Source of the DNA: a virus
Taxonomy: Duplodnaviria > Heunggongvirae > Uroviricota > Caudoviricetes
Virus record (IMG/VR): IMGVR_UViG_2541047931_000005
Coordinates: 1-33,086 of that record
Reading direction: 5' to 3' (one strand)
Length of the DNA stretch: 33,086 nucleotides
The position numbers and the translations under genes are program-made. Numbering within the stretch: position 1 is the stretch's first letter; each line of letters starts with the position of its first letter. This document shows, piece by piece, positions 1,156 to 33,086 of the stretch. The notes beneath the pieces were generated by a model. It did not search any database. It saw nothing but the letters and a program-made list of their open reading frames with translations, and was not told the DNA's origin.

Positions 1156-2199
1156 TTAAAGAATACTTGCCAGATACTTAAGTTGTCTTTGATATCGAGT
1201 AACCGACTGGTTAACTTGTAACCTTTTCCCTTCACTTACTGTATGGAAGCGACCAACTTTTAGCTGTGATATTGGTATGCTTTCAGCCCCACTAATTTGC
1301 CCGCTTGATACAAAATCATCTGTAACCACAATTGCTTTGCTAACATCTTCATCGGCAAAGAGATGACTGTATTTTTCAGCGATTTTTACAGCTCTCTCTA
1401 TGTACATTTGAGATGCGCGACCTGGTGTTGATGATTTACGGCTTTTTGAACCAGCCATTGTCATTACGATCGCTGCTACTTTTGGAGCCCCAAGCCCACC
1501 CGCACGCTCATTCCATAATACAAAATCTTTTGATTTATTTGCCAGCATTTCCATTGTGAGATGAAGTGACTCAATTGAGTGTTCATCTACGCGTACAGGG
1601 ATAATCAATGCCTCAGACGCGCACCATGCTAGGTGTGTTCCTCCAGCATAGAAAGGGCTTGTATCCATCAATAAAATTTCGCATTTTTTGTCTTTCGCTT
1701 CATCGTTCATTATTGCGCGAAGAGAATTTAATAGTGTTGATACTGCTTTTGGTTCTCCGCGAGATAGCGCTACTTGTAGTTGTTGATACATGCTTGATGG
1801 GAAAGCGAATAGCTCAGGATCACCTGGAATCGCATAACATGCCTTACCACCTTTAAAATCTGGGCAGAAATTACTTACTCGATATGAAATATCTTCTGGC
1901 TGCTCACCAAAAGCTGGACCCAGCATTTTTGGTGTCAGTGCATTAGCTATTGTTACAACCGGTTTTTCACCACGCAATAGTGTCTCCGTTAAATTACATT
2001 GCGGGCATAAGTCAGCCACTAATACGGAGTTACGTCGTGACAGCTCATAGGCGAGGTTGAATGTCATCGTGGACTTACCAACACCACCGCGCAGATTGGA
2101 AACTGCATAACTTTTGAATTTTGGCCCGCCATCTACGACGTAACCTTCCTCAACAACTTGTGCATAGCGTGCCATTACTGACTCAACTACAGTGCTCAT
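1156..2199 (-). CDS. ParA/MinD/Soj-like P-loop ATPase with a C-terminal extension, function unknown (candidate accessory or exclusion gene)
   Basis: 347-aa ORF with deviant Walker A (LRGGVGKST), A'-like (VLVADLCPQCNLT) and Walker B-like (ILLMDTSP) motifs; AGGAGG RBS 7 nt before the ATG; AT-rich compared with its flanks. Confidence 0.85.
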   Translation of the reverse strand: MSTVVESVMARYAQVVEEGYVVDGGPKFKSYAVSNLRGGVGKSTMTFNLAYELSRRNSVLVADLCPQCNLTETLLRGEKPVVTIANALTPKMLGPAFGEQPEDISYRVSNFCPDFKGGKACYAIPGDPELFAFPSSMYQQLQVALSRGEPKAVSTLLNSLRAIMNDEAKDKKCEILLMDTSPFYAGGTHLAWCASEALIIPVRVDEHSIESLHLTMEMLANKSKDFVLWNERAGGLGAPKVAAIVMTMAGSKSRKSSTPGRASQMYIERAVKIAEKYSHLFADEDVSKAIVVTDDFVSSGQISGAESIPISQLKVGRFHTVSEGKRLQVNQSVTRYQRQLKYLASIL

Positions 2200-2455: not shown

Positions 2456-3172
<717 letters not shown>

Positions 3173-22779: not shown

Positions 22780-24246
22780 ATGGCTACTTGGCAAGGAACA
22801 AATGGCGGATTGTTGGCTGGTATCGGTGGTGTCAACTCAAACGCTCCGAGCGTAAATGACATCGGCAATACGCTTCAGCTTATCAGGCAGAACAATGATA
22901 TTGAGCGTTCAGGCGCTAACAATGTTGGGCTGACTGCTTTGCAAGGCCTTTCAGGTATTGCAGGGGTGTTTCAGCAGGAAAAGCAGGCTCAGCGGCAGAA
23001 AGAATTTCAGCAGGCGTACGCTAATGCTTATGCGTCTGGTGATCGCGGTGCTTTGCGTCAGTTGGCTACTCAATATCCAGACCAGATTGAATCTGTTCGC
23101 AAAGGCATGGGATTCATTGATGAAGACCAGCGCAATTCTATCGGCACCTTAGCGGCTGGCGCACGCCTTGCGGCCTCGTCTCCAGAAGCAATGCAATCAT
23201 GGCTGCAAAACAACGCCAAGGAACTGACTCGCGTCGGTGTTGACCCTAATAACGTTGCTCAGATGTATCAGCAGAATCCTTCAGGATTTGGTGAGTTTGT
23301 TGATCACCTTGGGATGGCTGCTCTTGGTCCGATTGATTACTTCAATGTTCAGGACAAGATGGCTGGTCGTGAGATTGACCGAGGCAGACTGGCAGAGACA
23401 ATCCGCAGCAATCAGGCTGGTGAAGCACTTCAGGCGAGAGGGCAGGATATTAGCCGAGCAAATGCGTTAACGTCAGCATATGCACCAACAGCCGCAATGC
23501 AGAATTACAATCAGTACGCGCAAATGTTAAAGGTAGATCCAGATGGTGCAGCGGCATTTGCGGCAGCGGCGGGAATTAATCCCAATGCTAAGAAATTACT
23601 TAAGGTTGAAACCAATCCTGATGGCTCGGTAACTAAGTATTACACCGATGGCAGCGAGGAAGCCGGAAAACTAAACCAACCTATATCTGGTGATGGCATT
23701 AAACCAATTAGCTTGCCACAAGCGCAAAGCATCATAGATAAGGCTAATGAGGGTTCCAAGAAGGCGGCGGGATTTGCTTTGCGATTAAAAGATTCAATGG
23801 ACTCAATGAATCAGCTTAGTAAAAGCATTGACCCTAAGCGAGTTGCATTAATAAATCGCTCTCTTGGTGATGGAACTATTGCAAATTTAAGCCTATCACC
23901 AGCGGAGCAGCAATATATGGTAAATGCGAGAGACGCCTTGTATGCAATTTTGCGCCCAGAAACAGGTGCAGCAATTACTCTGCCAGAGATGCAGGAGTAT
24001 TCCAAAATGTACCTCCCTCAGCCCGGTGATTCCAAGGCTGCTACTGAAACAAAAATGCGAAAAATGCAGGGCCAATATAACTCATTACGTGGTCAGTCTG
24101 GTCGCGTTTATGATGCTTTGGTGGTTTCAAGTGCTGCAAATAGTCAACAACAGAGCAATAGCCAACAACCGACAAATACCCAACAGCAGCAGAGTCAATC
24201 CGGATCATATACCTCAAAATCAGGCATTCAATTTACGGTGGAATGA
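22780..24246 (+). CDS. Ejection protein (P22 gp20-like)
   Basis: 488 aa, canonical position. Confidence 0.8.
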
Positions 24247-26084
24247 TGAAAGTAACTGCAAACGGTAAGACATTTACCTTTCCTGATGGTACGAGCACCG
24301 AAGATATTGGCACCGCCATTGATGAGTATTTTGCTGGTCAGGCTGTTCAGCAACAAACAGTTAATCAGGCCAATAATGCACCAACACGGGAAGAACCATC
24401 ATTGATGCAACAAGCTGGCGATTGGCTCACTGGTGGTCAAAGTGCAGAGCAAATTGCAGAACAGGCTGGTCGTGGTCTGGTAAACATACCATTTGACGTA
24501 TTGCAGGGTGGCGCAAGTCTGATTAATGCAATCAGTCAGGGGCTTGGTGGACCCAAGGTTTTGGATGATGTTTATCGTCCAGTAGACAGACCGACAGACC
24601 CCTACGCACAAGCCGGTGAAACAATTGGTGGGTATTTAGTTCCAGGAGTTGGAACGGCAGGAAGCATGGCTATTGGATCACTGGCAGAGGCCGCAAATCA
24701 GAAAGGCGATTTCGCACAAAATGCAGCTAAAAATGCCGGAGTTAACCTTGCCGCTCAGGGTGTTCTTTCCGCCGCAGCAAAGGGAATAGGGCGTGGAATA
24801 ACGGCTATAAAAGGTGATATTGCGCCAGAAGTGGCGAAGAAAATTGCCACATCAGAATCGATGGGCGTGACACCAATGACATCTGATGTTATCCCGCCGA
24901 AAAATGCTTTCACTCGCGGCCTTACTCAGGATGCCGAGGGGGCTTTGCTCGGGACAGGCTCAAAGCGAGCGGAGCAATATGCAACGCGTAGTAAGCTGGT
25001 AAGTAATTATTTTGACCGTTTTGGTGAGTACAACCCTGATGATGTGGTGAAATCTCTGACCACCACGTTAAGGGGGAGGAAGGATGCCGCTGGCGCTGTT
25101 ATCAATGACGTCACCAATAAAATGGGTAATGCCGCAGTTGATACCACAAATACCATGAATGCTCTGAATACAGCGATCGCAAGACAGGAACGACTTGGGA
25201 CGTCTGCCAATCAAAGCCTGCTTACATCCTTGCGTAACCTACGTGAAGAATTAGCAAACCCTGCAACTGATTTGGATGTTACGTTTGATCTCTTGCGTCA
25301 GCACAGAACAGCATTTAGATCTAATGTTCAGGGAGATGCTATGGTCTTCCCCAACCAGGCAAAAGCAGCTACCAATATGGTAGAGAATGCAATGTCAAAA
25401 GACCTTCGTAACGCAGTTGCTAAAAACCTCGGTGCATCAGACGCAGCAAAATACCTTAAAGCAAATTCCGATTATGCAAACGTTTATAATAAGGTGCTTA
25501 ATAAAAACATTGCTAACAAACTCAACAAGGCAAGCAGTGAAGCCAGTCCTGAACTTATAAATACCGTTGTATTAAGCAGAAAACCATCTGACGTGAAACG
25601 AATCTGGAGCGCACTGGATGATAAAGGGAAAGATGCTATGCGTGCAGCTTACGTCAGCAAAATAGCGGAAAAGGCCGGTGACTCTCCAGCCAAGTTCATC
25701 ACTGAAGTTAATAAGCTGAAATCTCAGTCAGGCGGTGAAATTTACAACACTATTTTTTCTGGAAAGCACATGAAAGAACTTGATGCTCTTCATGAAGTTC
25801 TGCAGCAAACAGCAAGGTCAGACACCGCAAATGTAGTAACTCAGACGGGGCAATCGCAAGCCAACAGGATAAGGACGATTGGCGCAACTGCGACTCTTGG
25901 CGTATCAATGGGGCTTGAGGCTGGTTTCGGTGCAATGATGCGCTTGTATGAGTCCAAAGCAGCAAGGAATGCGCTCTTACGTCTGGCAAACACCAAAGCA
26001 GGAACACCAGCCTATGAAAGAGCGTTGAGTAACGCTGCAAATGCCATCAGGCCGCTGCTTGCTACTGAGGCAACACAGCAGTAA
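24243..26084 (+). CDS. Ejection protein (P22 gp16-like)
   Basis: 613 aa, canonical position; last gene of the rightward virion block before the accessory region. Confidence 0.8.
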
Positions 26085-26108: not shown

Positions 26109-26498
26109 TTAACATTTTCTTTTTACTTTTCCAACAAAAGCTTTGGTTGAATCCATATTCCCATAACCAGAAATGGTTTTTGACATTAAAACTGTTCCAG
26201 TAGGATGTATTACCCATGAGTCGATAACGCGTTGAGTTTCGCCATTCGCGCCGATTCCTATGATGGAGTTTTTAGACAATGCTTTGTAAGCCATGCCGCC
26301 CGCATCTGTCCCAGAATATGTGATGCTGGCATCTTCACCGCTTGTCTTAATGATGAATGTTCCACTAAAACCATCTTCTTCCGGATGGAAATTATTTCGT
26401 TCTGAATAGCTTATTCCGCGCATATCTCCAACGACCCAGCACTCTGCTGTAGCCCCAAAAGATATGAATAAGAACATAGCAGCAAGAAATTGCTTCAC
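26109..26498 (-). CDS. Small secreted (Sec signal peptide) protein of unknown function
   Basis: GTG start at 26498 preceded by AAGGAG; N-terminus KQFLAAMFLFISFGATA then ECWVV... (predicted cleavage after ATA); about 110-aa mature protein with Cys near both ends. Confidence 0.55.
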   Translation of the reverse strand: MKQFLAAMFLFISFGATAECWVVGDMRGISYSERNNFHPEEDGFSGTFIIKTSGEDASITYSGTDAGGMAYKALSKNSIIGIGANGETQRVIDSWVIHPTGTVLMSKTISGYGNMDSTKAFVGKVKRKC

Positions 26499-26528
26499 AC
26501 CAAGCTCCTTAGTTTTGAGCAGGATACC

Positions 26529-26894
26529 ATGAAAAAAGTTAACATTGGAAACGTACCAAAGATGCTCGTTCCGCTCTTTGAGAGCGGTACAATTGTGTTT
26601 TGTAGAGACTTTCCAGAATGGCAACGCCTGCATCAAAAACTTGGCGTTGACGTGCATGACTCGGACGCCAACGGAGCGTCTCATACAATGAGCAGCGAGA
26701 ATGGTGTTTTGCATGTGATAGGCGTGTTCAATGGCAAACTATCTACTATTGCCCATGAGTGCGCTCACATGGCATTCGATATCTGCTCAAGGGTCGGTGT
26801 TGATGTTGAACCAGGAAGAGCCAATGAGACTTACTGCTACTTAATGAGCAGGCTTGTTGAGTTCTGCGAGCGACATATCAAAAAGCCGGAGTGA
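26529..26894 (+). CDS. HExxH-motif protein (putative zinc-metallopeptidase-like), unknown family
   Basis: 121 aa from ATG 26529; HECAH at 26754-26768; divergently arranged with the secreted-protein gene. Confidence 0.6.
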   Translation: MKKVNIGNVPKMLVPLFESGTIVFCRDFPEWQRLHQKLGVDVHDSDANGASHTMSSENGVLHVIGVFNGKLSTIAHECAHMAFDICSRVGVDVEPGRANETYCYLMSRLVEFCERHIKKPE

Positions 26895-27497: not shown

Positions 27498-28034
27498 TCA
27501 AACAACCCACCAGTTTGCCTGATTGGATACCAGCCTTGCAGTTTTTATGGAATTAATTATGCCATGCTCAAGAGCCTTGTTAGCATCCAAAATGGTCGAG
27601 TCTGCTATCAGGGATGCCCACCTAATATGGGTTCCGATGTCGATATTGAACGTCTCAACGAAGCGATCAAGATCGTTATCGAGGCATTTCCCGTACTCTC
27701 TCAATCTGGCATGGTCGGCGGCTGGGGAGGCAAAGCACCATAATAGAGGATGTAACAGGAATCTTGATAATGGGTTTGCGAAACGTTCTGAGCCAGCCAG
27801 GAAAACGATATTAGCTATGGATTCAACATTGCTTATGTTGTGAGTTCTAACGGTAACAGGGAGTGACTTAAGAAAGTTATACGCAGTAAAGCCAGCGGCA
27901 GTTTCCCCTCCCTGACTTGATATATGGATATTTAATTCAGTTGCGCCTTGAGATAATGCGGTGAGACAGTGGTTCTGAAGTTGCCCAACAGTGGCAGTGT
28001 TAACGGGGCATAAGAAATGAATTGTGTGCAGCAT
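27498..28034 (-). CDS. ClpP-like (S14 family) serine peptidase homolog
   Basis: 178 aa; ISSQGGETAAGFTAYNFL matches the ClpP xSPGGxxxAGxxIYD region; plausible Ser (ESIAN), His (LLHPL), Asp (ADSTILDA) triad positions; start overlaps the Mnt-like stop (TAATG). Confidence 0.7.
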   Translation of the reverse strand: MLHTIHFLCPVNTATVGQLQNHCLTALSQGATELNIHISSQGGETAAGFTAYNFLKSLPVTVRTHNISNVESIANIVFLAGSERFANPLSRFLLHPLLWCFASPAADHARLREYGKCLDNDLDRFVETFNIDIGTHIRWASLIADSTILDANKALEHGIINSIKTARLVSNQANWWVV

Positions 28035-28288
28035 TATTTATCATCCTTGCCATAAATCTTTTTAAGTGTCTCAAACACAACGGCCTTGAACTGCTCTGCT
28101 TGCTGATCAGCCAAGCGTTCAGCTTCGTCTCGATAGCCTGCAATCGGTGATGGCTTTGAGAGAGCATCCTGAACGATTTGTAATAACTCAGAGTTCATTG
28201 ACCTTCCGTTAGCCTCTGCTCTTAATTTCAATTTTTCTCTTACTTCCAAAGGCATACGGAAGTTAAAGTGCGGATCGTTTCTAGCCAT
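28034..28288 (-). CDS. mnt: Mnt-like ribbon-helix-helix repressor
   Basis: 84 aa; MARNDPHFNFRMPLEVREKLKLRAEANGRSMNSELLQIVQDALSKPSP... closely resembles P22 Mnt. Confidence 0.85.
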   Translation of the reverse strand: MARNDPHFNFRMPLEVREKLKLRAEANGRSMNSELLQIVQDALSKPSPIAGYRDEAERLADQQAEQFKAVVFETLKKIYGKDDK

Positions 28289-28311: not shown

Positions 28312-28569
28312 CTAACTTTCGTCTTTATTGTTGCCATACATGCATTTCAACTTCTCAACATCATGTTCAAGATCTATCAATCGTGATGCTATAGTTGCAA
28401 GGTCTAGTGCTTGAATGTGTTTATTTTTTTCTGTCCACGCTTCAAGTGCCGCGACCATCTCAGCATTTAATGAACGAGAATTAGCCTCAGCCAGTTCAAT
28501 AAGACGTTCCTTTATCTCTACAGGAAGCCTCAGATTCACTTGAGGGTTTTTGTACTTACGATCAGACAT
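28312..28569 (-). CDS. Arc/Mnt-family ribbon-helix-helix protein (paralog 2)
   Basis: VNLRLPVEIKERLIELAEANSRSLNAEMVAALEAW; ATG at 28569 with AGGA 7 nt upstream (alternative GTG at 28575). Confidence 0.7.
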   Translation of the reverse strand: MSDRKYKNPQVNLRLPVEIKERLIELAEANSRSLNAEMVAALEAWTEKNKHIQALDLATIASRLIDLEHDVEKLKCMYGNNKDES

Positions 28570-28586
28570 CGGCACATCCTGAATAA

Positions 28587-28826
28587 TTATTTACCATACA
28601 TGGTCTTTAGCGTCTCAAGTAGCGCCTCTTTGAATTTATCAGCTTCTTGGTTAGCGAATCCTTCAAGTGAGCGAGAGCCATCAAGATTATCAACATGTTT
28701 TTGAAGGATAAGCACGATCTCTGAGTTCATTGATCTGCCGTTTTTATCCGCTTCTTGCTGAATGCGTTTCTTTAAATAGTCTGGAATCCTAATCCCCAAT
28801 GGACTGATATCTCTTGCACCTTTCAT
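28587..28826 (-). CDS. Arc/Mnt-family ribbon-helix-helix protein (paralog 3)
   Basis: MKGARDISPLGIRIPDYLKKRIQQEADKNGRSMNSEIVLILQKH...; ATG at 28826 with GGAGGAG RBS; N-terminus paralogous to the divergent Arc-like ORF. Confidence 0.7.
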   Translation of the reverse strand: MKGARDISPLGIRIPDYLKKRIQQEADKNGRSMNSEIVLILQKHVDNLDGSRSLEGFANQEADKFKEALLETLKTMYGK

Positions 28827-28844
28827 TTCTCCTCCTGCACGCTG

Positions 28845-28920
28845 TGCATAGCTACACAGTGTAGGCAAAAAAATTTTGACTTTAAATAAACACGGTGTAG
28901 TATTTAGTTATCACGGTGTA
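28845..28920. promoter_or_regulatory. Divergent promoter/operator region between the RHH operon and arc-ant
   Basis: Perfect inverted repeat CTACAC-A-GTGTAG (28850-28862) plus two direct copies of CACGGTGTAG (28891-28900, 28912-28921), with TTGACT and TATTTAGTTA promoter-like elements. Confidence 0.5.
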
Positions 28921-28934
28921 GCAAGTGAGGGGAA

Positions 28935-29075
28935 ATGAAAGTTAGAGACATCGCTCCATTAGGGATTCGTATCCCGCCAGAGATTAAAGAAAAATTGAAG
29001 GAAAAGGCTAAGGAGGAGGGCAGGTCTTTAAATTCAGAAATAGTGCAGCGTCTTATTCGCAGCCTAAAAAGTTGA
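28935..29075 (+). CDS. arc: Arc-like ribbon-helix-helix repressor
   Basis: 46 aa; [46 protein letters not shown]; RBS GAGGGG; directly upstream of ant as in P22. Confidence 0.7.
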
Positions 29076-29137: not shown

Positions 29138-30040
29138 ATGAATAGTATAGCAATTTTAGAAGCGGTGAACACCTCTTACGTGCCATTCAACGGTCAGCAA
29201 ATTATCACCGCCATGGCTGCCGGAGTTGCATATGTTGCGATGAAGCCAATCGTTGAAAACCTCGGAATGAGCTGGTCAACGCAGCAAACAAAACTCATGA
29301 AGCAGATTAGCAAATTCAACTGTGTTCATATGAACATGGTTGCCGCTGATGGTAAGCTTCGTAAGCTACTCTGCCTTCCTTTGAAGAAGTTAAATGGATG
29401 GCTGTTCAGCATCAACCCTGAGAAAGTTCGTGCTGACATCCGCGATAAACTGATTCAGTACCAGGAAGAATGCTTTACTGTGCTGCATGACTACTGGACA
29501 AAGGGAGAGGCAGCAAATGCACGGAAGAAAACATCTGTTGATGACAGGACTCCGCTTCGTGATGCTGTAAATATGCTAGTCAGCAAAAAGCATCTAATGT
29601 ACCCAGAAGCTTATGCAATGATTCATCAGCGTTTCAATGTGGAAAGTATTGAAGAGCTTGATGCATCTCAGATACCGCAAGCCGTAGAGTACATCCACAG
29701 GGTAGTGCTTGAAGGTGAATTTATCGGCAAACAAGAGAGGAAAGTCAACGAGCTTTCTGCAAAAGAAGCAAACAGCCTTGTATGGTTATGGGATTATGCC
29801 AACCGCTCACAGGCATTATTCCGCGAATTGTATCCGGCGCTAAAACAAATTCAATCGAACTATTCAGGCAGATGTCATGACTGCGGTTATGAGTTCTCCC
29901 GTATTATCGATATGGCGAGAGATGTTTTAATCAACCATACACGAGATGTTGATATTAATGAGCCAGGCGGACCGACGAACCTTTCAGCATGGATAAGACT
30001 TAAGAATAAAGAATTACCTCCTTCAGTACATAACTACTGA
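29138..30040 (+). CDS. ant: Antirepressor Ant (P22 Ant-like)
   Basis: 300 aa from ATG 29138 ([21 protein letters not shown]...), same length and N-terminus as P22 Ant. Confidence 0.9.
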
Positions 30041-30055
30041 CAGATAACCAACGCA

Positions 30056-30083
30056 ACGACCCAGCTTCGGCTGGGTTTTTTTA
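30056..30083 (+). terminator. Intrinsic terminator after ant
   Basis: ACCCAGC-TTCG-GCTGGGT hairpin followed by T7. Confidence 0.7.
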
Positions 30084-30140
30084 TGCCCAAAATTCACCGT
30101 AGCCATGCTGCGGCGATTCCTTGTGTCTGGAGCAAATTAA

Positions 30141-33086
30141 ATGAGAGACATTACAGCCAATGTGATCGTATCGATGCCTTCGCAACTCTTCACTATGGCG
30201 CGTTCTTTTAAAGCCGTAGCCAATGGCAAAATTTATATCGGTAAAATTGACACTGACCCTGTAAATCCTGAAAACCAGATTCAGGTTTATGTGGAAAACG
30301 AAGACGGCTCTCACGTTCCTGTTTCGCAACCAATCATCATTAACGCTGCTGGATATCCTGTATATAACGGACAGATTGCCAAATTCGTAACTGTGCAAGG
30401 CCATTCTATGGCTGTTTATGATGCGTATGGTGCGCAGCAGTTCTATTTTCCGAATGTGCTGAAGTATGATCCTGATCAGTTACGGCGGCAATTAGAAGAC
30501 CCAGATGGAGCGAATAAATACCCAAAACTTCAGATAGCAAGATGGAGAGACAGTTATGATGTAAGAGGTTGGGGGGCTATTGGTGATGGTGTTCATGATG
30601 ATACATCAGCTCTATCAGAATTACTTTCTGTTGCAACAGGTGGTGAAAAGATAGATGGGCGAGGGCTTACTTTTAAAGTATCAAATCTTCCGGATGTCAG
30701 TCGATTTAAAAATGCTCGTTTTTTATTTGAGAGAATACCGGGTCAGCCTCTTTTTTATGCTTCTGAAGATTTTATCCAGGGAGAGTTATTTAAAATTACA
30801 GATACACCGTGGTACAACGCCTGGACGCAGGATAAAACGTTTGTATATGACAATGTCATCTATGCGCCTTTTATGGCTGGAGACCGCCATGGTGTAAATA
30901 ACCTCCATGTTGCATGGGTTCGCTCAGGAGATGACGGGAAGACCTGGACAACGCCGGAATGGCTTACAGATTTACATGAAAACTATCCCACAGTTAACTA
31001 TCACTGCATGAGTATGGGGGTTGTCAGAAATCGCCTTTTTGCTGTAATTGAGACGCGGACCGTGAGAGGAAATAAACTGCAGGTTGCAGAGTTGTGGGAT
31101 CGCCCAATGAGTCGCAGCCTTCGCGTTTATGGTGGTATAACGAAAGCAGCAAATCAGCAAGTCGCTTATATTCGCATTACTGATCACGGATTATTTGCTG
31201 GTGATTTTGTCAACTTCTCAAACTCTGGTGTTACAGGTGTTACCGGGAATATGACGGTGACTACTGTTATTGATAAAAATACTTTTACAGTTACGACGCA
31301 AAATACCCAGGATGTGGATCAGAATAACGAGGGTAGATACTGGAGTTTTGGTACATCATTTCACTCGTCACCATGGAGAAAAACCAGTCTTGGAACTATT
31401 CCTTCTTTTGTTGACGGAAGCACTCCTGTTACTGAGATTCACAGTTTTGCGACGATTAGCGATAACAGTTTTGCTGTTGGCTACCATAATGGTGATATTG
31501 GTCCACGCGAGCTTGGGATACTCTATTTCTCTGATGCTTTCGGTTCTCCTGGTAGCTTTGTTCGCAGACGCATACCTGCAGAATATGAGGCGAATGCATC
31601 TGAGCCATGTGTAAAATATTATGATGGCATTCTGTATCTGACGACCAGGGGGACATTAAGTACTCAACCCGGTAGTTCATTGCACAGAAGCTCTGATTTA
31701 GGTACATCATGGAATTCTCTTCGCTTCCCAAATAATGTTCATCACTCAAACCTTCCTTTTGCCAAAGTTGGCGATGAGCTGATTATTTTTGGCAGTGAGC
31801 GCGCATTTGGTGAGTGGGAAGGAGGAGAACCTGATAACCGTTATGCAGGAAATTATCCAAGAACATTTATGACCAGAGTTAACGTCAATGAGTGGAGTCT
31901 GGATAATGTAGAGTGGGTTAATGTTACTGATCAGATTTATCAGGGCGGAATAGTTAACTCTGCGGTTGGTGTTGGTTCAGTTTGTATCAAAGACAACTGG
32001 CTGTACTACATTTTCGGTGGGGAAGACTTTCTAAACCCATGGAGCATAGGGGATAACAACAGAAAATATCCTTATGTTCACGATGGTCACCCGGCTGATT
32101 TATATTGTTTCAGGGTGAAAATCAAACAGGAAGAATTTGTTTCAAGGGATTTTGTCTACGGAGCCACTCCTAACAGAACGCTTCCTACTTTGATGTCGAC
32201 GTCAGGCGTGAGGACGGTTCCTGTACCCGTTGATTTCACAGATGATGTTGCCGTCCAGTCACTGACTGTCCATGCAGGTACATCAGGACAAGTTCGCGCG
32301 GAAGTCAAACTTGAGGGTAATTACGCCATTATTGCGAAGAAAGTACCGTCTGATGATGTTACCGCTCAGAGATTAATCGTTAGCGGCGGTGAAACAACGT
32401 CTTCAGCAGATGGTGCAATGATAACGTTGCATGGTTCCAGAAGCAGTACTCCACGTCGCGCGGTATATAACGCACTCGAACATCTTTTTGAGAACGGAGA
32501 TGTTAAACCTTATCTTGATAATGTAAATGCTCTTGGTGGTCCGGGAAACAGGTTCTCGATAGTTTATCTTGGCTCCAATCCTGTGGTTACCAGTGACGGA
32601 ACATTAAAGACAGAGCCGGTCTCTCCTGACGAAGCATTGCTGGATGCCTGGGGTGACGTCAGGTATATCGCTTATAAATGGCTGAACGCTGTCGCTATAA
32701 AGGGGGAAGAAGGGGCGAGGATACATCATGGTGTAATCGCGCAGCAACTTCGTGATGTTCTTATTTCTCACGGACTCATGGAAGAAGAAAGCACAACATG
32801 CCGCTATGCCTTTCTTTGCTATGACGATTATCCCGCAGTATATGATGACGTCATTACTGGCCAAAGGGAAATGCCGCTGACTGATAATGACGGGAGCATC
32901 ATTGTTGATGAGGATGATAATCCAGTGATGGTAATGGAAGACATCATTGAGCGCGTTGAAATAACGCCAGCAGGATCTAGATGGGGGGTCAGACCTGATC
33001 TCTTATTCTATATCGAGGCGGCATGGCAGCGCAGAGAAATGGATAAGATAAAAGCTAGGTTAGACTTAATAGAAGGGAAGCACTAA
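30141..33086 (+). CDS. Tailspike: P22-type head-binding N-terminal domain fused to a sialidase-like (endosialidase-type) body and C-terminal chaperone-like domain
   Basis: N-terminal about 120 aa resemble P22 gp9 ([13 protein letters not shown]...[38 protein letters not shown]...[14 protein letters not shown]...VLKYDPDQ); two Asp-boxes SGDDGKTW (30924-30947) and SSDLGTSW (31689-31712). Confidence 0.85.

Follow-up and report, generated by a model that had tools for sequence, protein, structure and literature searches.

Endosialidases (endo-N-acetylneuraminidases) of bacteriophages that infect encapsulated Escherichia coli K1 have been well characterized, and the tailspike SiaK1 of CUS-3, a prophage of E. 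coli K1 RS218, is the member most relevant to this study (ABQ88383.1/CAJ29292.1; Stummeyer et al., 2006). In a review, CUS-3 is listed among the characterized K1-specific endosialidases, as an N-terminal domain of the P22/HK620/Sf6 type fused to a catalytic domain of the K1F type (PMC5380687). The GenBank record of CUS-3 carries the statement 'endo-alpha-sialidase activity [Evidence IDA] PMID 16689790'. The endosialidase of phage K1F (endoNF, gp17; PDB entries 1V0E, 3GVJ-L and 3GW6) provides the structural reference, with a GH58 propeller, a nested barrel, a stalk and a C-terminal chaperone. In deep mutational scanning of the K1F enzyme, the catalytic or substrate-binding residues H350, R549, E581, R596 and R647 were intolerant of substitution, as were Q330, K585 and N699, whereas K410 was important in vitro but dispensable for K1F infection (PMC12632334). 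The autocleavage dyad of endoNF is formed by S911 and K916 (PMC3742443; PMC8326128), and a stalk arginine, R897, takes part in the reaction (PMC8326128). The tailspikes of P22 (gp9), Sf6 (gp14) and HK620 (gp9) have a head-binding domain homologous to that of the protein described here, from residue 1 to about residue 118. The receptor-binding parts of these tailspikes are O-antigen endoglycosidases of the right-handed beta-helix type, without sequence similarity to the endosialidase part, and a cleavable Peptidase_S74 chaperone domain is absent from them.

Here, we describe a tailspike gene located at the end of a 33,086-nucleotide stretch of viral DNA, referred to as the window. Comparison with the systems above leaves us in very little doubt that the gene is an allele of CUS-3 siaK1 and that its product is the receptor-destroying tailspike of an E. 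coli K1 phage, temperate and P22-like.

Gene and domain architecture

In the ORF listing of the window, the gene starts with ATG and continues as a single intact frame of 981 codons, with no frameshift or premature stop. Its stop codon (TAA/TGA-type) forms the final three bases of the window, which ends there. An antisense ORF at 30081..30404 (107 aa) and other internal overlapping ORFs were rejected as spurious, since the plus-strand frame is fully explained by a conserved protein. All six expected Pfam domains were found in the protein in canonical order, with scores well over the gathering scores; the Peptidase_S74 model, for instance, scored 41.5 against a gathering score of 22. The features of the locus are collected in Table 1.

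Table 1. Features of the tailspike locus, with residues of the encoded protein and positions in the window
Feature	Residues	Position	Strand	Evidence
Complete endosialidase (endo-N-acetylneuraminidase) tailspike gene, CUS-3 siaK1 allele	1-981	30141..33086	+	ORF call, 981 aa + stop
P22-type head-binding (virion attachment) domain	1-113	30141..30479	+	Pfam PF09008 (Head_binding), E 2.4e-66, model 1-113 of 113
Junction/linker	114-145	30480..30575	+	tblastn match ranges and K1F alignment
Endosialidase N-terminal extension	146-212	30576..30776	+	Pfam PF12218 (End_N_terminal), E 1.5e-36
Catalytic six-bladed beta-propeller (GH58)	213-662	30777..32126	+	Pfam PF12217 (End_beta_propel), E 5.4e-233, model 1-367 of 367
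Asp-box 1, SGDDGKTW	262-269	30924..30947	+	Aligns with K1F SGDDGQTW
Beta-barrel (lectin-like, polysialic-acid-binding) nested in propeller	324-406	31110..31358	+	Pfam PF12195 (End_beta_barrel), E 1.2e-46
Asp-box 2, SSDLGTSW	517-524	31689..31712	+	Aligns with K1F SRDIGQTW
Stalk (triple beta-helix/beta-prism), including R804	663-817	32127..32591	+	Pfam PF12219 (End_tail_spike), E 3.3e-77
C-terminal intramolecular chaperone/autocleavage domain	818-981	32592..33083	+	Pfam PF13884 (Peptidase_S74), E 1.6e-10
Intergenic boundary sequence 'bsq1' between ant and tailspike gene		30041..30140	+	98/100 identical to CUS-3 bsq1 feature
Terminator-like hairpin GACCCAGC-TTCG-GCTGGGTT in bsq1, followed by T-run		30058-30077	+	Terminator scan
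Equivalent of K1F H350	H250			Conserved in alignment
Equivalent of K1F R549	R456			Conserved in alignment
Equivalent of K1F E581	E488			Conserved in alignment
Equivalent of K1F R596	R503			Conserved in alignment
Equivalent of K1F R647	R554			Conserved in alignment
Equivalent of K1F Q330	Q230			Conserved in alignment
Equivalent of K1F K585	K492			Conserved in alignment
Equivalent of K1F N699	N606			Conserved in alignment

The initial annotation had proposed an N-terminus like that of P22 gp9, and the searches bear this out: in addition to the Pfam match, head-binding domains in the PDB (P22, Sf6 gp14 and the HK620-/CUS-3-type) match residues 1-118 with E values from 1e-45 to 4e-64. Within this domain the protein is 92.6% identical to HK620 gp9 over residues 4-124 and about 62% identical to Sf6. 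The similarity to other P22-like tailspikes stops at about residues 118-124, and the similarity to K1F starts at about residue 114. Beyond the junction, a PDB search returned the catalytic part of K1F endoNF (1V0E, 3GVJ-L) with an E value of 0 over residues 145-817, the phi92 endosialidase (4HIZ) at 1.6e-271 and the endoNF chaperone domain (CIMCD; 3GW6) at 3.4e-93 over residues 698-979. The C-terminal chaperone-like domain proposed earlier is therefore real, although its length is 164 residues rather than the roughly 150 first estimated.

The two sialidase Asp-boxes that had been noticed in the sequence, both as SxDxGxTW, are present, but the second reads SxDxGxSW, with Ser and not Thr at position 7. 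Their origin by chance was rejected because, given the composition of the protein, 0.0006 (strict SxDxGxTW motif) or 0.003 (loose motif) such boxes are expected per protein, and because both boxes align column for column with those of K1F. Assignment to a generic BNR sialidase was likewise rejected: the Pfam BNR_2 model scored 17.3 bits against a threshold of 31.4, whereas the endosialidase models scored hundreds of bits. An alignment to the characterized endosialidases of K1F and CUS-3 had been suggested as a check, with a failure to align to endosialidase catalytic domains outside the Asp-boxes counting against the assignment. When run, the alignment extended far past the boxes and located both the catalytic residues and the predicted cleavage site.

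Overall, the protein is about 61-62% identical to K1F gp17, and the identity varies by region: 61% in the N-terminal extension, 70% in the propeller, 67.5% in the barrel and 55% in both the stalk and the chaperone domain. The head-binding part has no meaningful similarity to K1F in the alignment; at this end K1F has an adaptor of the T7 gp17 type, about 240 residues long, where the window protein has the 113-residue P22 domain. Two further differences from K1F are shared with CUS-3, namely seven additional residues, FVDGSTP (residues 423-429), and eight more inserted into the chaperone domain. In tblastn searches, the identity to the phi92-like and K1E/K1-5-like endosialidases is 55-59%.

Near-identity with CUS-3 SiaK1 and conservation of functional residues

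In the phage collection, CUS-3 siaK1 (CP000711, 'endosialidase tailspike protein') is 99.0% identical to the gene in nucleotide sequence over 100% of its length. The two proteins have the same length (981 residues) and the same domain order, and they are 98.8% identical, with 12 substitutions and no insertions or deletions. Given as window residue, position and CUS-3 residue, the substitutions are R2T, P43T, R116Q, P121T, N182T, A207V, R309S, L684F, A832T, M967I, D968E and K969R; none falls on a catalytic or autocleavage residue, and the propeller and barrel are those of CUS-3 apart from R309. The DNA differs at 29 nucleotides, by which the 12 codons are altered. Fifteen of these differences lie in the first ~360 nt and five in the last ~70 nt, and such clustering at the edges is the pattern that recombination at the borders of the catalytic cassette would be expected to produce. 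Judged by these comparisons, the gene encodes a nearly identical allelic form of a protein already known and characterized by experiment, and it offers no novelty at the protein level.

For comparison of individual residues, we used four close relatives: CUS-3, the blood isolate 372_BP0083, phage 720R6 and phage ZX5. Residues N182, L684 and M967-D968-K969 are private to the window, the last three lying in the helix that ends the chaperone domain, the part predicted to be cleaved off. By contrast, R309 is common to the remaining relatives and is Ser in CUS-3 and 720R6; it adjoins the position of K1F K410, which is Gly310 in the window protein and also Gly in the active CUS-3 enzyme.

The window protein was aligned with CUS-3 SiaK1 and with full-length K1F gp17 in order to map the functional residues. 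All eight substitution-intolerant positions of K1F are conserved (Table 1). The numbering was checked against the PDB mutant 3GVJ, which departs from the wild type at the Arg aligned with R554, and this fits K1F residue 647. The autocleavage residues R897, S911 and K916 of K1F are kept as R804, S818 and K823. From the conservation of these three residues, cleavage is predicted between T817 and S818 (GSNPVVT/SDGTLK), which would free a fragment of 164 residues.

Phage backbone and distribution of the gene

The window is a segment of a P22-like temperate phage, with genes for a cI-type repressor, cII, O, a primase-helicase, RusA, Q, a KilA-N protein, the large terminase, a P22 portal and injectosome proteins, followed by an immI region and the tailspike. 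Upstream of the tailspike gene are ant (P22_AR_N/C), Arc/Mnt genes, a P22 injectosome protein and the P22 portal. The tailspike gene thus lies last in the late region, behind immI (mnt/arc/ant), in the order found in CUS-3, and both this location and the head-binding domain place the protein among the P22-like (Lederbergvirus) tailspikes. In the intergenic bsq1 sequence, the hairpin listed in Table 1 may act as a terminator, judging from its agreement with the consensus. For the neighbouring ClpP-like and ParA-like ORFs, a PADLOC scan found nothing.

Outside the tailspike region, the relation to CUS-3 is looser. A block at 29708-33086, from within ant (its 3' third) through bsq1 to the end of the tailspike gene, is 98.2% identical to CUS-3. 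However, the alignment to CUS-3 DNA covers 11.2 of 33.1 kb (34% of the window), with no alignment in the region of the terminase, portal and coat genes. The nearest relatives of the morphogenetic genes are phages APC_JM3.2 and IME10, at about 96%. We therefore rejected the possibility that the window is CUS-3 itself. It is mildly notable that the P22-like backbone around the tailspike cassette is for the most part not that of CUS-3.

At least 80% of the tailspike gene was found in 181 of 5,426 complete E. coli genomes, the best copy being 99.6% identical. The carriers include the K1/ExPEC strains UTI89, IHE3034, CE10 (O7:K1), APEC O18, RS218 and NU14, and the closest genomic copies come from human blood, CSF and UTI isolates and from avian ExPEC. 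In the genome of one close relative, the tailspike gene is followed by a neuO-type acyltransferase gene, intS and a tRNA-Arg gene. For the last 11 kb of the window, no complete E. coli genome covers 80% or more. Near-identical genes are also present in the isolated plaque-forming phages vB_EcoP-720R6, phiv205-1 and ZX5. The endosialidase tailspike gene of vB_EcoP_ZX5, a Uetakevirus (epsilon15-like), is 99.6% identical in nucleotide sequence over nt 522-2914 of the gene (residues ~174-971), but in the ZX5 protein (1039 residues) the extreme C-terminus differs, and so does the N-terminal attachment region, which is longer. Thus, the same catalytic cassette is mounted on another type of virion.

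Predicted mode of action and alternative readings

The mechanism that we propose is drawn from homology to experimentally characterized proteins. The protein would fold as a homotrimer, and the folding of its triple-beta-helix stalk would be assisted by the C-terminal domain, an intramolecular chaperone. This domain would then remove itself by autoproteolysis between Thr817 and Ser818, carried out by Ser818 and Lys823 with the assistance of Arg804, and the head-binding domain (residues 1-113) would dock the mature spike on the P22-type tail machine. Sites in the barrel and the stalk would hold the polysialic acid chain; the binding-site residues of the endosialidase stalk are presumably R837, S848 and Q853. 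Meanwhile, the propeller would cut alpha-2,8 linkages endolytically, so that the virion could tunnel across the K1 capsule and reach the outer membrane.

The initial annotation had also predicted specificity for polysialic acid and the K1 capsule. This prediction is supported by the full-length identity to CUS-3 SiaK1, the canonical endosialidase domains and the conserved catalytic and autocleavage residues. Endolytic cleavage of alpha-2,8-polysialic acid is inferred from the 98.8% identity to CUS-3 SiaK1, for which the GenBank record gives direct assay evidence (IDA; PMID 16689790). More generally, the assignments of enzymatic activity, autocleavage and host rest on this identity together with the conservation of every known functional residue. 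An endosialidase spike that opens the K1 capsule would give a host range of K1-encapsulated E. coli. Such a host is likewise suggested by the tailspike and its relatives, in a phage whose backbone is only about one-third CUS-3-like.

Two other readings of the locus were weighed. The gene might be a remnant in a decaying prophage, its frame intact and hitch-hiking in a degrading CUS-3-like element with no role in infection, and in many NMEC isolates CUS-3-like prophages do tend to decay (PMC9659370). We regard this as very improbable. The ORF is full-length with all functional residues intact, only 12 codons are altered by the 29 nucleotide differences from CUS-3, and near-identical genes are carried by the plaque-forming phages vB_EcoP-720R6, phiv205-1 and ZX5. 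In addition, the upstream region holds long intact ORFs and an apparently complete P22-like set of early and late genes (terminase, portal, injection proteins, Q, O and cI-type repressor).

A functional spike could still differ from the CUS-3 and K1F enzymes in its substrate preference, if private substitutions had shifted it towards better tolerance of O-acetylated polysialic acid, or towards the alpha-2,9 or alternating alpha-2,8/2,9 (K92) polymer. The window-private residues N182, L684 and M967-D968-K969 (against the four close relatives) could be cited for such a shift, as could R309, which adjoins the K410 'gateway' position of K1F, and mutations in the stalk and barrel of K1F are known to tune discrimination among K1 strains (PMC12632334). 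Nevertheless, the 12 changes in 981 residues spare all known catalytic residues, three of the private changes lie in the chaperone domain, which is predicted to be cleaved off, and the propeller and barrel are identical to those of CUS-3 but for R309. Nothing points to an altered linkage specificity. A shifted preference is thus, in our estimate, marginally less probable even than decay. Equally slim is the chance of the narrower effect, that, compared with CUS-3 SiaK1, processivity or the tolerance of O-acetylated polysialic acid is measurably altered by N182, L684 and R309, the last beside the K1F K410 position. If this were true, the altered enzyme together with the non-CUS-3 P22-like backbone would define a lineage of K1 phages whose host range among K1 strains is somewhat different.

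Read as an allele of CUS-3 SiaK1, the gene brings no new biology, since the family, structure, catalytic mechanism and self-cleaving chaperone are all well characterized. Its value lies in annotation: by this gene the window can be recognized as a temperate phage or prophage of the P22-like kind whose hosts are E. coli with a K1 capsule, typically extraintestinal pathogens, and polysialic acid is the predicted primary receptor. Furthermore, the occurrence of one catalytic module behind P22-type, epsilon15-type and T7-type adaptors is a further case of the textbook modular exchange of tailspike cassettes.

Genome background of the tailspike cassette

Across the tailspike cassette, which comprises the 3' third of ant, the intergenic boundary sequence bsq1 and the tailspike gene, identity to E. 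coli K1 prophage CUS-3 is 98.2%. Over the whole window, only 11.2 of the 33.1 kb can be aligned to CUS-3; its genes for terminase, portal and coat resemble those of IME10/APC_JM3.2 instead. Of the complete E. coli genomes, none covers 80% or more of the final 11 kb. These results make the window a P22-like mosaic distinct from CUS-3 that bears the K1 tailspike.

Accessory genes and the immI region

The ParA/MinD-like ATPase gene lies directly downstream of the repressor gene on the same strand. In lambdoid prophages, exclusion or defence genes expressed in the lysogen often occupy this site; a PADLOC scan of the ATPase gene gave no match. Near the injection genes, the 201-aa ORF matched neither Pfam nor PADLOC entries, and a Pfam search with the gp16-position protein gave no match. 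The Clp-domain ORF, which had no match in the PADLOC defence-system scan, may be a moron. At immI, the P22-type regulatory region, the window carries three minus-strand Arc/Mnt-type genes, whereas two mnt genes are annotated in CUS-3; with the plus-strand arc-like ORF, they form an expanded version of the region. The ant gene starts with the ATG at 29138, the mechanical start being a TTG at 29072.

Features of the window and of the ZX5 record
Feature	Position	Strand	Remark
ParA/MinD-like P-loop ATPase	1156-2199	-	AAA_31/CbiA
cI-type repressor	2456-3169	-	S24-peptidase/HTH
gp16-position protein	24243-26084	+	613 aa
201-aa ORF	26109-26714	-	after last injection-protein gene
178-aa ORF	27498-28034	-	Clp protease domain (PF00574, E 2e-11); between injection genes and immI
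Arc/Mnt-type ribbon-helix-helix genes (tandem)	28034-28288, 28312-28575, 28587-28868	-	
arc-like ORF	28935-29075	+	46 aa; just upstream of ant
Tailspike cassette	29708-33086		
Gene with the endosialidase module, Escherichia phage vB_EcoP_ZX5	2303-5422 (MW722083)		

Endosialidase insertions and module sharing

Compared with endoNF, the endosialidase of coliphage K1F, the CUS-3-type enzymes carry seven extra propeller residues (FVDGSTP, aa 423-429, window 31407-31427), placed five positions ahead of the conserved pair H434/S435 (K1F H527/S528), and eight more in the chaperone domain (tailspike aa ~925-932). The epsilon15-like phage ZX5 (Uetakevirus) shares its endosialidase module with nt 522-2914 of the window gene at 99.6% nucleotide identity, but its N-terminal adaptor is longer than and different from that of the window protein. 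Such sharing looks as if two lineages of temperate podoviruses had recently exchanged the cassette.
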